From: Azolla caroliniana
Taxonomy: Eukaryota > Plantae > Polypodiophyta
Assembly (NCBI GenBank): GCA_043228905.1
Contig: JBHGNT010000004.1
Coordinates: forward strand, 6,076,001 to 6,140,000
Reading direction: 5' to 3'
Length of the DNA stretch: 64,000 nucleotides
The notes under the pieces are model-generated. The model was not told the DNA's origin. It ran no database searches and saw only the letters and a program-made list of their open reading frames with translations. The position numbers were made by a program, and so were the translations under genes. Positions 1 to 13,408 of this stretch are shown here, in pieces (within the stretch, counting starts at the first letter, position 1; every line of letters begins with the position of its first letter).

Positions 1-3000
1 ATAAAAGGGGTCGCGTCGGACCCAAGTTTACGGAATCCGGCTAGCATAGGGCACCGGTTCACCGACATAACGCTACGGGAGCTCAAAGTAGGTGGGGGTG
101 GCTTTCTACTGTCGGCGGAGGAGGACAGGTTTCGGAGAATGCTCGGAAGGCATGGGAAAGCCTTCGCATTCTCGCTAGAGGAGATCGGGTGCGTAGACCC
201 AATAGTTGTGGAACCGATGGTGATCTTCACGGTACCGCATGTGCCCTGAAATCTCAAACCGATTTCAGTACCCAGAGCTCACATCCCGAAGCTGATGGAG
301 CTGTTGAAACAGAAGGCCAAGATGGGCATCCTCGAACCGTCGAGTGCCCCATACTCGAATCGGTGGTTTACCGTGCCAAAGAAGAACGGCACGTTACGTT
401 TTAGTCAAGACCTGCAACCGGTCAACAAGGTGACCATTCGGAACGCAGGAATCAGACCGACCATAGACGAGTTCGCGGAGGCCTTCGCTGGAAGGTCGAT
501 TTACTCTGTCGGTGATCTATACTCGGGGTACGATCAGTTCCAACTAGCCGTGGAGAGCAGAGACATTACGACGACGCGGACTCCTCTCGGCCTAGTGCAG
601 ATGTGTACCCTACCACAAGGAGGGACGAACTCGGTGGCTCACATGGTGAACGCGATGAACAAAGTGCTCAGGGATTGCATCCCGGACATCAACATGCCGT
701 TCTTAGATGACATCTCGATCAAGGGATGCCCGGTGGAGGAAAAGGACGAGACAATCGGACCAGACGGATGTCGGAAGTTCGTGGCGGCTCACATCGATGA
801 CTGCGAGAAGGTGTTGCAGAGACTAGAAGGCGCGAGGCTCACCTTCTCCAGGGAAAAATTGGCCTTCGGGAAATCAGAGATCATGGTCGTCGGGCACCTA
901 TGCAGACCATACGGTCGAAAACCATCTCCGGCCAAGGTGGAAGCCATCTCCGCGATGAAGCATGACTGCAATTCGGTTACGGAGGTTCGGAGATTCTTGG
1001 GAGCATGCGCGTTCTACCATATTTGGATTCCACATTACGCCCACGTCGCGGAGCCGCTGTATGGGTTGTTGAAGAAAGGGCGTAAATTTGAGTGGGGAGA
1101 CGAGCATATGGAGTCAGCCCGAAAGATAAAGGAAGCACTTGCCACGACACCGGCGCTCCGAAAGGCTGTCTACGGCAAAGACACTTCGATTTACGTAACC
1201 GTAGACATGAGTCCGACCGGGATCGAATGGGTGATCAACCAAGAGGATGACACTGGCATGAGGTTCCCCATCCGGTTCGGCGCGAAGGTCCTCAGTGAAC
1301 GACAGCGAGGATACGCCCAGGTTAAACGCGAACTCTAGGGTATCATTTCGGCGGTGAAGGCCGATAAAGACTACCTGATCAGGACAGAGGTAATAATCGA
1401 GACGGACTGCCTACCAATTCTCGGCATGGTTTCCGGATGCGCGACGCCGGACCTGGCAATGCTCAGGTGGATAGCGTACATCAAGTCCCTGAATCTGGAG
1501 ATACGACACATTTCCGGAAAAGACAATGCCATGGTCGACATGCTCTCAAGGGCGAGGTTTGAAAACGAGGACGGCATGGTTTCGGAGGACGAGGAAGTCA
1601 GCGTAGATTTCTTCGAGGCGGCATACGTGACAACCAGAAAGGGGAGCACACCGGCGCTTAACGAATTTGACGAGAACAAGTATGACGGGGAGTGCCTCCA
1701 GATCGGCGGGCTCTTGAAAACAATGACACCGGACGCGGCGTGGACAAAGGAAGAGACCAACCGGATCCGGAAGAAAGCGTACCGGTTCTTCCTTCGGGAC
1801 AGGTACATATGGAAGCACCCGAAGAAGAGAAACGGCGTTCCACTTCGAGTAGTGGCAAAGAAAGAAGAACAGGAGGAACTACTGGCGGCATTTCACGAGA
1901 GTCCCTAGGCTGGGCACCGCGGAACGTGGGCCACGTTCGAGAAGGTGAAGGAGAAGTACTTGTGGTCGGGGCTGTACCAGGACGTGCATCGGTTCGTAAT
2001 GACTGGCGAAAGCTGTCAGATGCACTCCGTAGTCTGACATCGGGACGAGCTACACCCGACTTACCCACCTGCGGTCCATTTCAAGTGGATGGTGGACTTG
2101 ATGACGATGCCGATGGGAGTAGGACAGATGCGGTACCTGGTGATTGCGCGAGAAGACTTAACGAACCAGGTGGAAGGTCGTGCACTGCATAACAAGACAA
2201 CCGTGGTGGTATGCCGGTTCCTGATCGAAGAGGTAGTGTGTCAATACGGGTGCGTGGGGAGGATCATGGCGGACCAGGGAGAGTTGGATGCACGGGAAGC
2301 TGAGGAGTCGTTCGACCGGCTAGGGGTCAAACTCTCCCTCACTATGGCGTACAATCCGGAGGCGAATGGGAAGGTAGAACGTGGACACGGGCCGATCGTA
2401 AAGGTGTTGGTGTGTGCATGCGGAGGGCAAGTCGGGAGTTGGCCACGGCTCCTTCCTTACGCACTATGGGCGGACCGAACTACGCACAGTTCGGTGACAG
2501 GGTTCATGCCGGTAGAGCTGATGTACGGACAGAAGTCGATCATGTCGATGGAACGGACGGTTCCTTCATGGGCGGCGGTAGATTGGAAGGATGAGATGAG
2601 CCGAGAGGAATTGCTGGCGGCACGGATTCGGCAACTCGAGCGGAGGCCGGAGGACGTGAAACGGGCGAAGGAAAAGCTGCGGGCGGCAAGGGAGCGGAAC
2701 AAGACCCGGTTCGACCGGACGCACCAGTTGCGACCAAAGAAGATTGAGGAAGGCGATTGGGTCCTAGTGTATGACAGTAGCCTCAACAACCAGCACAGGG
2801 CAACGCGAAAGTTTGCAAGGAGGTGGTTCGGGCCTTATGTGGTGACAGGCGCCAACGACAACGGGACCTACCATCTTGCGGAGATCGACGGTACGAGGAT
2901 GGCAATACTGGTAGCAAGGAAGAGGGTCAAAGAGTTTAAGAAACGACACGAGTGCGAGCCGGATCTGGAAAGCTTGGACGGCGACGAAGGGCGGACCGAG

Positions 3001-3030
3001 GCGGATGACGAACCGGAAGACGAGGAGTAA
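1..3030 (+). pseudogene. Gypsy pol polyprotein (RT, RNase H, integrase with GPY/F motif, no chromodomain) broken by in-frame stops
   Basis: RT motifs DLYSGYDQ, LPQGGTNS, FLDD; RNase H-like YAQVKREL...IETDC; integrase NGKVERGH and WFGPY. ORFs 295-1338, 1354-1908 and 2089-3030 share one frame, with stops near 247, 1336, 1906 and 2036. Confidence 0.92.
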
Positions 3031-5731: not shown

Positions 5732-6222
5732 TGTTGTCAATAGGCCAGAAATATAAATATATTATGTAAACTCGCCATTAGGTAGAAGAGTAGGTGAGGA
5801 AATAGGTAAGACTAGAAATAGTCGTGTTTTAGCCCTCACAATCAGCCGATGGCTCGGCTCTGTCTAAAGGGGAAAACTATATAACCCGAGTTATGCATAC
5901 CTCAAGGGGGGATTATCTAGATCGTTCTTAGCGAGAGTAATATCACAGCAGCAAGTTCTGTACGAACTGTTTCCGACCGAGGCCGACTACTGTAATCACT
6001 GTGAGCTTCATCATTTAATATAAGTTTCGTTTTTATTCTTCTATCTGTGTATTCTCCCTGTACTCGTAAATCAAGCTACGTTATTGCCTAATGGGTTGTA
6101 GCTGGGTACGCTCCTCGTTCTCCTTTCTTCTCCCCGTGTAGAAGAGACTTCCCCGTAACACGATCCCTTGACCCCGATAGCCTGTGGGCTCATCGAAGGT
6201 GTTTTCCCAGAAACGGTTAACA
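5732..6222. repeat. LTR of family X copy 1 (491 bp)
   Basis: TGTT...AACA termini; CTATATAA near 5877 on +; right-end block CGATCCCTTGACCC...ATCGAAGGTGTT shared with 14560-15154. Confidence 0.8.
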
Positions 6223-9200
6223 CTTTGTTCTTGGATGGAACACTGGATTTTTTGCCAACTGAATGTTACTCATATTGTCACACCAAATTGTGACAGCACC
6301 ATCTATATACTCTCTCAAATCAGAAAGCAATCTTTTGATCCATACCTCTTCACAGGTAGCTATTGCAACTCCTCTATATTCAGCTTCAGTACTTGATAGT
6401 GCAAGAATAGCTTGTTTCTTGCTACTCCATGAAATAGTTGCACTTCCCAATGTAAAGATATATCCACTTGTGGATCTTTTGTCAGTTTGGCTTCCAGCCC
6501 AATCAACATCTGTATATCCTTCCAGCTTTATGTCCAAATCAGCCTTGTAAAATAATCCATAATTTTGAGTAGCTTTTACATACCTCAAAATTCTTCTTAT
6601 GTAGTCCAAATGTGGCTTTGTTGGTTGTTGCATAAACTGGCTGACTAATCCAACAACATAACTCAAATCAGGTCTTGTTATAGTCAAATATATGAGGCTA
6701 CCCACCATAGACCTATACATGTTTACATCTTCTATTTTGGCTCCCAAATCAACCATCAATTTGCAGTTCTTATCTACTAGTACACCAATAGGTTTGCATC
6801 CAAGCATACCATACTTCTTCAACATAGTTGTTGCATACTGTTTTTGCAACATATATATACCACTTTCAGATCTGATCATCCCAATACCGAGAAAGTATCT
6901 CAGCTCTCCCAAATCTTTCATATGAAATTGCATTTCCATATTTTTTTTTAACTTTCTTATTTCAGCCATGGAATTACCTCCAATGATTAAATCATCAACA
7001 TAAATTAGGATAACAACAATGCAATCATTTATCTTTTTTACATATAATGATGGATCAGCTTTTGACATTCTGAAGGCAGATTTTTTCAGAGATTCTGAAA
7101 GCCCCTTATGCCATGCTCTCGATGCCTATTTCAATCCATAGAGAGCCTTTTTCAGCCTACATACACATTCTGGATGCTTCTTATCTTCAAAACCTGGTGG
7201 TTGACACATGTATACTTCCTCTTCCAAGTTACCATGTAAAAAAACATTTTTTACATCTATATGGTGCAGAACCAATTTTTTGCCTGCACTCACAGCAAGT
7301 AGTGTTATCAATGTTGCCATCTTTGCAACCGGTGCAAATGTTTCATCATAATCAATTCCATGCATCTGGGCATATCCCTTTGCCACAAGTCTTGCTTTAT
7401 GTCTACTAACATTTCCATTGGAGTCATGCTTTGTCTTGTAGACCCATTTGCAACCTACAACATTTTTTCCTTTCGGTAACTTTACCAAATCCCGTGTTCT
7501 ATTTTCAGCCAATGCATCTATTTCTTCTTGCATTGCATTCACCCATTTCTTATCAGATTTTGCTTCATCAAAACTATTTGGATCAGGGATTTGTACCACT
7601 TTAGACATGTATGCATAATGCATAGCCATATATGTGTCATAACCAAATCTTTCCACGGTCTTTTTCTCTCTATCTGATCTTCTCAGTTTCTGATTTGCAT
7701 CCTTCATTGCCCTTTCCATACCAGGGATTTTCAGGGATCCTATACCAAGCTCATCATCCAATGATGTATCTGAATCTACATCTTCCATGTTTCTAGATCC
7801 ATCATCAAGCATTTCATATTCTGGCATTTTCTGTTTTCCCTTTTTATCATCATAATTTTTGTCTTGCACTTTTTCCACTCCATGCGTTAGATTCAGATTT
7901 ACTACCTGAGTTTCCAGATGGTCCAGTACATTCCATTGATGTTGAACTTTGTTGTCCAACATTGCTTCCATCTCTGTGCTTATCTCTTACATTTTCAAAT
8001 TTATCCTTGTCTTCATTTTCATTGTCTTCATTAATTTCTTCATTTTGTTTTGGGTTATACTAGCTACCCAACTCATCAAATATTACATCCCAACTTACCA
8101 CAATCTTTTTTGTCAAAGGGTTATAGCATCTATACCCTTTTTGCTCCTCTAAATATCCAACAAGAACACATTTTTCAGCTTTTGGATCAAACTTACTTCT
8201 TACTTCAGCAGGTACATGAACATAGGCAAGGCATCCAAACACTTTTAAGTGTTCTAAACTAGGCTTTCTACCATAGAAACATTCTTCAGGAGTTACTTCA
8301 TGCACTCCAGACGTTATACATCTATTTAGAATGTAGTTTGTTGTGTTTACAACTTTTGCCCAATAATAAAATGGCATATTTTTTTCAATCATCATGGCTC
8401 TTGCTATGTTCACCAGAGTTTTGTTTTTTCTCTTAGCAACTCCATTTTACTGTGGAGTATATCTACATGTAAACTGTCTCCTTATTCCTTGATTACATAG
8501 AAAATCAGAAAACTCATTTGAGAAGTATTCTCCTCCTCCATCAGATCTTAGGCATTTTATTCTAGTTCCAACCTGCTTTTCTACCATACATTTAAACTTA
8601 CGAAAGCAATCAAATACTTCACTTTTTTCTTTTATGAAGTAAACCCATGTTTTCCTTGAGCAATCATCATTTTGCTTTTTATAGCACTCAGCCTCTGTAT
8701 GGCCTAGTTTTCCACAATACCAACTACCATCATCATTCAAATAGGTTTGCTTACCTCTTCCTCGATTGCTCCCCCTGCCTCTGATGTTGTTTCATCCACT
8801 TACAGCCTATTGTCCTCTTCCTTGATAATTGTTGTTGGTTCTAACTGAACCAAATCTTCAATGGCCTCTTCCTCGGCCTCTTCCAGCACTATTGTAGACG
8901 GTTTGCCCCTCATCCTCTGAGTTTCCTTTGTTTACATCATCCATTTGATTTCTTTCTTCTACTACAAGCATTGAAACCAAATCTGGAAAACTTGGGATGC
9001 TATCCCTTGTGAGAATAGATGTTTCGAAGCTTTTATATTGAGCTCCTAAACCTCTTAAGCATATTTCCACCTTATCATCATCTTCTACCTTCACATTGAT
9101 AGAAGCAAGTGATTCACATATGCTCTTTATTTTTAGAGCATACTCATTCACTAACATCTTACCTTTTTCCAAGGTATTTAGCTCAGTCTTCAACTAAAGC

Positions 9201-11190: not shown

Positions 11191-13408
11191 TGCGAGGGTA
11201 GCTACCCGGAAAGCTACCAAGGACACCCAAGCGGAGAACGGTCTGCCGAGCCGGAAAGGCCACACCCAAAGGCAAATCGGAGGGCGTGAGTGTGGCCATC
11301 GAGGGCCAAAGTAAAGCATGGGTACGGGATGGTGTTCGGCACAGACAATGCCGAACAAGGAAGGTGGAAGGCGGCACACGGTTGTGCCGGGCCGGAAACT
11401 AGGCACGAAGATGGATTGCACGGTTTGGTGGTCTCACGAAGAACGTCGGAGAGGGATTCCCACACCGGTTCCGAAGACTTCGGCAGTTCGACCGCCAAGG
11501 CAACGTAAGACCGAGGAGAAGGAAGGTGGCTGCGAGGGGACGAAAGCGATGAACAACGACACTGAATGGGCAATCAGGACGACGGGAAGATCGACGAAGG
11601 CTGAGCTGGCCACTACGGGTGTCCCGCGGATGGAGGACACCGAGCATACGGGGGGACGCGGAGCGTGCATACGGTCGAACAAAGGGCCAACAGAGAAGCA
11701 CGCGCGAGAGAGGAGATCGTAGCGAACGATCTATCGACAGGTTGAATGAGCCTACGAAGAGGCAAGTGCGTAGACAGAACCGGAGCAGACAGTTCAAGAC
11801 CGGTAGAGGCCAACACGGCAGCCGGAATGAGGATTACGAAAGACCGGTTACTCACTACAGCCGGAATCTCTCACACTTCTTCAGATTTGGCACGTACCGG
11901 TGGACGTGCGGTTTGGTGGGGGCGGATGTCATGGAGATTCACGACCATAGTGAGAAAACCGGAGAAGTTAGTGGCATCGACGAAGTGCATCATGTGCACT
12001 TACCCTTGTATAAAACGTGTGAATAATAGGGGTGCCTTTATGGCGGCAAATAGGAGTTAAGTAGGGGATCCCACGTAATAAGGGATATATTATCCCACAT
12101 TGTTATGCCACTCCCGCCTTGTGCTATAAAAGGAAGGGAGGGTCTCTTGTGAAGGGGTTGCCCATTTTTGAGTTAGGAGGGTATACCATTAGGTCCAAGG
12201 TATGATAATCTTTCTTCTTCTTACTTTCTTGTTTCTATTTGGGTTTTTTTTGAGGTCTTCTTCTTCTTCGTCATCGTGTAGGTTGAGAGTTCGTGTCTGT
12301 TTAGGATTTAGTTCGGTTAGGAGCTTGTATGTCCTAAGGGGTTTCACTTCTGCTCTGTCTCTTGTGCAAGACCCCGCTCGGCGCGACGAGCCCGAGTGTT
12401 ACGGGCATGACCATATAATATCCTGTGGTGAGAATTTACCGTAGTATTCTATACACGTGGATAAGTGTGAGGGTTAAACGAGAGTGTAAAGAAGGGGAGG
12501 ATTACTTTTAATCCTCAGGATTGAGACAACCCATTAGGCCAAGTGTGAACAACTATTAGAGATATGTACTAATGTAAGCAAAGGATAAGGATAAACGATA
12601 GATCTAGATAGAGAGGAAAGAGAGGAAAGAGAGAAAGAAGGGTGTCGATCCACCCGACCACCCCCGAGCGAAGGGATCGAGACAGACTCGAGCCTCGATC
12701 GGCATCCCATACCACCGTCGTGGCGTTGAGTCGTACCTAGTGTTGGCACGCTCGCTACAAGAGTTGACTCACCACAAGAACAAAGTCTCGACGTAGTCAA
12801 AAGATGATGAAATGAGGGTAGCTAGGCCTCTTATTTATAGTGATACCCAAGGCCCCCAGACAAGTTCACACTTGGCCTAATGGGTTGTCTCAATCCCGAG
12901 GATTAAAAGTAATCATCCCCTTCTTTACACTCTCGTTTAACCCTCACACTTATCCACGTGTATAGAATACTACGGTAAATTCTCACAACGGGATATTATA
13001 TGGTCATGTCCGTAACACCGAGAGCTCCCCGATCGGCGGCTTGGCAGCAGATTATTGTTTTAACCTAACCTACCTTAGTCCGGCTCGAAGCCAGAGTTGT
13101 ATTTTGCTCTTGTAATTATATATATATATAAGGTTGTGCATATCTATGTCTTTGTTGGTGTTGGGTATGTTTTCGTCTTTCCGTTTCTGTACATAAGTGG
13201 TGTGTGTTGAGTCGGTGTTGCGTGTACGCTCTCTCTCTCCCTCTCTCCTGTTCGGTAGCCTCCGATACGTGTTTGGAATCACTCGGTTTGTGTGATAGCC
13301 GGTGCAGACGGTTCCAGTGAGAGTCGATCTCCCAGCATCCATCTATTCTTGGTCCGTGACCCCGGTGGTCCTGCCCGATCCGACACGTGCACGCGGAATA
13401 CTGCGACA
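11191..13408 (+). mobile_element. Gypsy-type LTR remnant (solo or truncated LTR) inserted in the tRNA array
   Basis: GC-rich block interrupting the AT-rich array; TATA GCTATAAAAGG near 12123; ends GCGACA; 3' end resembles LTR 3090-3775 (CCCCGnTGGTCC...CACGCG). No TSD found and the left boundary is approximate. Confidence 0.65.
12397..13017 (-). mobile_element. 621-bp non-autonomous element with 154-bp terminal inverted repeats, TGTTACGG...CCGTAACA ends and 5-bp TSD CCGAG
   Basis: 12397-12550 is the reverse complement of 12864-13017 (5 mismatches by eye); CCGAG at 12392-12396 and 13018-13022; internal minus-strand CTATAAATAAGAGG. Confidence 0.9.

Follow-up and report, generated by a model that had tools for sequence, protein, structure and literature searches.

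What kind of element is bounded by integrase-type ends, long inverted repeats and a 5-bp target-site duplication (TSD), and how did it come to be inserted? The question is raised by one short, non-coding locus in a 64,000-nucleotide stretch of Azolla caroliniana DNA (the window). An earlier note, made from the sequence alone, described it as a foldback element and offered two readings, a solo LTR from a family with palindromic LTRs or a non-autonomous Ginger-like MITE, possibly intermediate between LTR and DNA transposon. What seemed a single oddity belongs to a countable class, comprising about 100 independent two-U3-ended insertions from one retrotransposon family.

Structure and insertion of the element

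The outline in the earlier note was confirmed: the terminal TGTTACGG and CCGTAACA, CCGAG on both sides, and arms of 154 bp each with 5 mismatches and 313 nt between them (Table 1). The ends are of the integrase type that it had recognized, with a TG..CA-type U3 end on each side and a 5-bp TSD. By contrast, the assumption of two symmetric TIRs flanking a core does not hold; one arm is the normal 5' end of an LTR, and the other is an added inverted copy attached via GTTG. Read on the minus strand, the order is a 464-nt LTR (13017-12554), GTTG, and the reverse complement of LTR positions 154-1. The last G of GTTG is common to the inverted arm, a 1-nt microhomology. The primer-binding site that follows the LTR is labelled here as tRNA-iMet, which we take to be its identity. 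The 5 arm differences (3 private to one arm, 2 to the other) amount to a divergence of 3.2%. The suggested promoter motif CTATAAATAAGAGG is present on the minus strand, but the CT-rich leader said to follow it is a tract about 200 nt downstream that does not adjoin it. Folded as DNA, the hairpin reaches -197.5 kcal/mol (z -21 against 20 shuffles), in keeping with the folding potential claimed for it.

Table 1. Features of the element and its insertion site, in window coordinates
Feature	Position	Strand	Remark
Element ends	TGTTACGG starts at 12397; CCGTAACA finishes at 13017		621 bp in all
TSD CCGAG, left copy	12392..12396	+	one copy only in 24/24 empty-site paralogs
Inverted U3 copy (LTR positions 1-154), extra arm	12397..12550	+	second TG..CA integrase end
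Junction GTTG	12550..12553	-	2-nt spacer and first 2 primer-binding-site bases
Full 464-nt LTR (U3-R-U5), ends TGTTA...TAATA	12554..13017	-	chromoviral Ty3/gypsy family
TATA-like motif CTATAAATAAGAGG, putative LTR promoter	12827..12840	-	conserved across aligned copies
TSD CCGAG, right copy	13018..13022	+	
Host: LTR of an unrelated repeat family, split by the insertion	11927..13408	+	

The insertion site can be read from relatives of the host LTR. All 24 paralogs (own locus excluded) carry a single CCGAG, or a one-letter variant of it, and then the right flank. A single copy followed by an intact right flank in 24 of 24 indicates that the TSD is real, as the note had supposed, and suggests that the element was inserted as one unit. 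Elsewhere in the window, broken pol frames at 250-3030 (+) and 6217-7986 (-) belong to two other retroelements, gypsy-like and copia-like by eye.

The parent retrotransposon

A search of the 523-Mb genome with the element returned 86 matches from 40 scored of 3508 candidates. The LTR part of the element is 92-94% similar to the LTRs that form direct pairs at two loci (L040 and L041), where they surround gag-protease-RT-RNaseH-integrase-chromodomain. Pfam models matched 7 of 9 ORF pieces in the order Ty3_capsid, Asp_protease, RVT_1, RT_RNaseH and Integrase_H2C2, and a chromodomain (PF00385 and PF24626) follows the integrase in L041 and L035. Since the paired LTRs enclose gag, protease, RT, RNase H, integrase and chromodomain, the parent is a chromoviral Ty3/gypsy element, and the LTR origin put forward in the earlier note is upheld by the complete LTR that the window element contains. 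Ordinary 5' LTRs of this family continue into GTTGGTATCAGAGC on the primer-site side, and its 3' LTRs are preceded by a purine tract (PPT); among 30 loci there were 11 five-prime LTRs with a primer site and 6 three-prime LTRs with a PPT. The note had proposed a genome search in which copies paired around gag-pol, with primer site and PPT, would mark a palindromic LTR. Such paired copies exist, but their LTRs are not palindromic. The added inverted arm is missing from 26 of the 30 best loci, which match one arm and the core only.

The 26-nt LTR start has 1650 exact copies in the genome. Solo LTRs of the family have a TSD matching at at least 4/5 positions in 10 of 11 cases, all of them ending in TA. 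Across a biased locus set (79 ends; window 12554-12561 on the minus strand, L003-L030), the U5 ends are TA in 60, CA in 17 and AA in 2, and TA-ended elements, solo and full, carry normal TSDs. The idea that fold-backs arise because a defective TA-ending U5 gets replaced is unneeded, given the TSDs of 10 of 11 TA-ended solo LTRs. At L026:1470-1530 (minus) the U5 end, primer site and leader form a long stem (z -3.25; 1 of 200 shuffles), and the junction of another locus, L110, falls exactly on this U5/primer-site hairpin.

Recurrence of the form across the genome

The genome-wide pattern required U3 end anchors within 450 nt of each other. It found 93 sites with inward-facing U3-U3 pairs (up to 482 nt), 5 with outward-facing pairs and none in a reversed control. 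TSDs were scored at the 50 listed of the 93 inward sites (first contigs) and matched at 5/5 positions in 36, at 4/5 in 9 and at fewer in 5, against 3 of 2450 mismatched flank pairs that reach 5/5. The tabulation of TSDs over relatives, as the earlier note had advised, thus gave 5 bp (at least 4/5 matching) in 45 of 50. The 50 fold-backs measure 72 to 474 nt, with a median of 146 nt among the 49 elements compared for clonality, and the 72-bp one (L157) has a 5/5 TSD. Of the exact LTR starts, the first 100 listed include 4 that lie in fold-backs (~4%). A single-copy local rearrangement, which the note had named as a refutation, does not fit a form that recurs independently about 100 times.

A pattern of a U5 end plus an inverted U3 end gave 52 matches, of which 43 were parsed and 2 further examined afterwards. 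Many of the 52 are ordinary 5' LTRs, in which the reversed primer site mimics the U5 end, or chance, and 7 matches outside the 43 begin with the same reversed primer-site signature. Seven of the parsed matches are fold-backs of LTR size whose TSD matches at 4/5 positions or better (the window element, L091, L092, L096, L110, L119 and L125), among which L125 is a head-to-head LTR dimer. Two loci, L133 (TSD CAACC) and L135 (TSD CTATG), are full-length elements that end, on the 3' side, in an added inverted U3 and have a single TSD enclosing everything; in both, the primer site stands after the 5' LTR and the arm is at the 3' end only. The arm of L133 is identical to both of its LTRs, which differ from each other at 2 of 466 positions. 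The window copy is either a direct 621-bp insertion or the solo-LTR remnant of an L133-like full-length element with an extra arm.

Mirror-image U5-U5 forms are rare, with 6 matches at 5 loci, 3 of them standalone with a TSD. The rarity does not stem from the anchor, because the U5 anchor matches more LTR copies (28 of 30) than the U3 anchor (18 of 30). Five of the six ends of the three standalone U5-U5 fold-backs are CA. U5 ends facing each other occur at 3 sites, against 5 in the control. One 5-kb U3-U3 element (L212) has no TSD, and the first 100 LTR starts listed include a single 5-kb inward pair, which is a truncated retroelement. The host family, a weak control with only 15 anchors, gave 0 fold-backs; a second LTR family, also a weak control, gave 3 matches at 2 loci, one with 3/5 flanks and one complex and without a TSD. 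A search of a phage collection gave no match.

Solo LTRs are likewise LTR-derived and non-coding with a 5-bp TSD, and so are TRIMs. The fold-backs differ in that their ends are inverted and not direct, and most of them are without U5, primer site or PPT.

Junctions and independent origins

Clonality was assessed on 49 elements, namely the 45 with a TSD from the inward search and 4 from the U5/inverted-U3 search. They have 40 distinct lengths, and the closest pair is 95.2% alike. Elements with the same junction (145 and 147 nt) often differ by variants that one element has in both arms and the other lacks altogether; such mirrored private variants indicate that the repeated sizes come from junction hot spots where U3 has short inverted repeats, and not from a master copy. 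Over clean arm overlaps, available for 23 of the 28 simple two-armed elements (the 50 minus the zigzag and TSD-less ones), transversions plus indels per site are 0.014 within an element and 0.041 between elements, and any transversion or indel is found in 9 of 23 within-element pairs against 770 of 1012 between-element pairs. Variants shared by the two arms also mark ordinary LTR subfamilies in 6 of 10 tested (pool of 50). The shared variants, with the lower divergence within elements, indicate that each fold-back was built from its own parent.

Microhomology of at least 2 nt lies at the junction of 18 of the 28 simple elements, and of 18 of the 23 without an insert (chance 0.16, p 9e-11), while 5 of the 28 have inserted or unparsed bases. 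Other fold-backs (L164, L174, L180 and L183) are zigzags, whose templated inserts record repeated strand switches. At junctions with a complete U5 end, spacer and primer-site bases are kept past it, 4 in the window element and 9-14 in L092, L109, L110, L121 and L123. Spacer or primer-site bases number at least 3 in 8 of 13 parsed junctions (the 3 of L093 are ambiguous). L110 keeps the spacer and 12 primer-site bases. In L109 a 3' LTR is followed by 10 primer-site bases, which would fit a plus strand that had copied the tRNA primer. L092 and L104 run more than 100 nt beyond the primer site.

A probable origin in plus-strand DNA

The window element more probably than otherwise arose from a plus-strand intermediate of reverse transcription that folded back, or was cross-primed, after which integrase likely inserted it by way of its two U3 ends. 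Its structure shows that both U3 ends were present at integration, because two ends must be inserted in concert to yield an exact 5-bp TSD; their linkage would have come about as follows. Repeated priming at the PPT would produce displaced plus strands with a common start at U3 position 1, of which some would run into the tRNA. The 3' end of such a strand would anneal by 1-10 nt to an upstream site on a plus strand and be extended back to position 1. A second plus strand, which is simply proposed here, might then fill the other side and give a linear DNA with two U3 ends, and integrase would insert both ends together. The products would be dead ends, with no route to recopying. Plus strands that all begin at U3 position 1 would explain why U3-U3 forms so outnumber U5-U5 forms, why the arms are short and why remnants of the primer site are left. 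All of these steps are read from genomic fossils and should be taken as a plausible sequence of events.

Several of these steps have precedents in yeast elements. In Ty3, priming at the PPT is repeated, the first plus strand extends over 12 nt of the tRNA, and dead-end plus strands pile up in particles (PMC5371799). Ty1 integrase inserts short TG..CA DNA with a 5-bp TSD (PMC2939329). The dead-end plus-strand strong-stop DNA of Ty3 and Ty1 (PMC5371799) resembles the Azolla forms in starting at U3 and, in some strands, in carrying up to 12 tRNA-derived bases, but it consists of unintegrated single strands, whereas the Azolla forms appear folded back, two-ended and integrated with a TSD. Since L092 and L104 extend so far beyond the primer site, not all fold-backs derive from strong-stop DNA.

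Some observations count against a copy-back origin. The window junction has only 1 nt of microhomology, 5 of the 50 mini fold-backs are without a TSD of 4/5, and L212 has none. In addition, 9 of 23 elements have a transversion or indel between their arms, and the U3 itself has no unusual structure, since its positions 1-160, searched for a special hairpin, fold no better than shuffles (z -1.0).

Alternative explanations

The main rival, possible but rather unlikely, is a history in which the U3 ends of two molecules are paired and inserted by integrase with a 5-bp TSD, after which the host trims and joins the inner ends by microhomology, or a long palindrome collapses centrally. It covers the TSD, the variable arms, the microhomology and the templated zigzags, as well as the head-to-head dimer L125 and unprocessed U5 ends. 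Microhomology and zigzag templated inserts are equally the signature of polymerase-theta end joining, and host joining fits both features as well as copy-back does. It fits the 146-nt median (n=49) less well, which would need the loss of kilobases from both arms if the donors were full length; moreover, L133 and L135 each have one arm that is complete down to its final base, and the arms of the same fold-back share private variants. A partial precedent comes from one-ended HIV and ASLV proviruses, where polymerases of the host lengthen unintegrated viral ends along neighbouring viral DNA, so that the end carries viral sequence in either orientation with short homology at the joint (PMC5041404). 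There, however, the second end is described as host-inserted, usually without a 5-bp repeat and mostly with large duplications or deletions (PMC5041404), whereas the Azolla elements have two perfect U3 ends and a 5-bp TSD.

A third reading, by which the fold-backs would form a family of non-autonomous MITEs mobilized by a transposase of Ginger-like or other integrase descent, is very unlikely and already largely refuted. Like MITEs they are short and non-coding, with TIRs and a TSD, and the TG..CA ends, the long TIRs, the dispersed copies and the repeated 145- and 147-nt classes would all suit such a family. They lack its near-identical copies of one size, as the spread of lengths, the similarity ceiling and the mirrored differences of same-junction pairs show. 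No second copy of the window junction was found in a genome search among 40 scored of 750 candidates, which, with the limited likeness of the 49 mini fold-backs, speaks against the amplified Ginger-like MITE envisaged in the earlier note. A TIR-bracketed integrase-only element was not seen among the loci examined; the genome-wide pattern covered gaps of up to 450 nt. Ginger1, Ginger2 and GingerRoot do share TG..CA ends, TIRs of 100-150 bp and gypsy-type integrase chemistry, and Ginger1 is proposed to be gypsy-derived (PMC6839031). Their TSDs are given there as 4 bp (Ginger1) or 6 bp (Ginger2 and GingerRoot), whereas the Azolla elements have 5 bp, TIRs that are LTR U3, no transposase and no clonal amplification.

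Inversion-type autointegration of cDNA, with the products later entering the genome, is highly improbable. Inversion circles, in which an LTR is joined to an inverted part of its own element, are known from Arabidopsis particles (SISYPHUS) and from Ty1 (PMC7197481), and at L019, L093 and L098 a 3' LTR is joined almost directly to an inverted U3. Autointegration, however, uses processed ends and yields circles, which are not reported there as two-U3-ended genomic insertions (PMC7197481). At many of the Azolla junctions, the GTTG of the window element included, primer-site bases remain, and these argue against autointegration because integrase would have removed them. The elements are bounded by two free U3 ends with a TSD in genomic DNA, and U5 is missing from most of them.

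Rearrangement of a solo LTR after insertion, nested insertion and assembly artefact are, as a group, most improbable. One look-alike is indeed nested: L002, tried as a relative and rejected, is a solo LTR (L032:1521-2431) lying in opposite orientation within a 3' LTR from the same family and flanked by a separate TSD, CCCAG. None of the listed pieces of public short-read contigs spans the window junctions. Against this stand the exact TSD with an intact right flank, the 3.2% divergence with changes on both arms, the 45 of 50 relatives with a TSD, and two fold-backs (L127 and L129) that are found again, 99.2% and 98.1% alike over 3.2-3.5 kb, in contigs assembled separately. The TSDs, the diverged arms and the two repeated elements together make an artefact of assembly unlikely.

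Scarcely credible, finally, is a solo LTR of a subfamily whose LTR itself is a 621-bp palindrome, the other reading of the earlier note: L019 combines a PPT and a full LTR with an inverted arm of 152 nt, but it is a 3' LTR with its own junction, rejected as the same form, and like it the other two-armed matches (3 in all, beside 26 ordinary one-armed LTRs among the 30 best loci) have junctions different from the one in the window, which is unique among the 40 scored candidates, L133 and L135 are armed at the 3' end only, and the same two-armed LTR at both ends of an element was not found among the loci examined.

Significance

The fold-backs are a real feature of this genome, a form of aberrant retroelement integration that stands out by its number and its regularity, and the population evidence for it is new. 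In a literature search, mostly outside subscription papers, no account of integrated fold-backs with two U3 ends as a class came up. The fold-backs preserve, at base level, a germ-line record of failed reverse transcription and make the handling of plus strands by plant gypsy elements testable from genomes. They also show that in vivo a gypsy integrase can use a pair of U3 ends, even when the DNA is no longer than that of L157. A copy-and-paste element thus likely leaves look-alikes of DNA transposons in the genome, and MITE finders would likely misfile them as such.

In RNA viruses, copy-back defective genomes form when the polymerase leaves its template and copies the nascent strand, which gives a panhandle with two copies of one end. 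The Azolla forms differ in being DNA, made by RT and fixed in the germ line by integrase, with no sign of further replication. It may tentatively be suggested that gypsy RT routinely makes copy-back DNA, as the retroelement counterpart of those viral genomes, and that integrase fixes TIR-flanked hairpins in the germ line, with ~4% of the family's LTR starts as the outcome. On this suggestion, which we hold with less than even confidence, they might be a self-made source of hairpin RNA against the family and might pass unnoticed as false MITEs in the annotation of plant genomes; they might also be the structural step that is missing between gypsy and Ginger, with two identical inward integrase ends that sometimes surround a whole coding element. 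The hairpins of the LTR could seed silencing of the parent family. The notion of a passage from LTR to TIR form, raised in the earlier note, keeps its basis in the two inward U3 ends of the window element and its relatives, which offer a concrete route to the TIRs needed for the proposed gypsy-to-Ginger reversal.

Other rearranged loci

Several loci show further rearrangements. At L096 (L215:186-729), an LTR carries about 10 nt of inverted U3 end and has a TSD, and that end and about 50 nt of flank are duplicated in tandem. L201:2196-8490 and L199/L134 are whole elements with several internal inversions and duplications, integrase ends and one TSD (GTAAT and CGTTG, respectively). In a second class of junction, a 5' LTR is joined to an inverted U3 that runs through the PPT into internal sequence (L012, L104, L123 and L124); 3 of these 4 loci keep the primer site or leader after the 5' LTR, and L012 was set aside as an example of the window form on the strength of this inverted U3-PPT-internal DNA. 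In the second LTR family (L202:6073-9846 and L209-L211), a 12-nt stretch after the 5' LTR is complementary to LTR positions 218-229, which we take to be possible self-priming of the Tf1 type. The complementary site lies about 33 nt past a TATA-like motif, and both fold-back loci of that family turn at the palindrome so formed.
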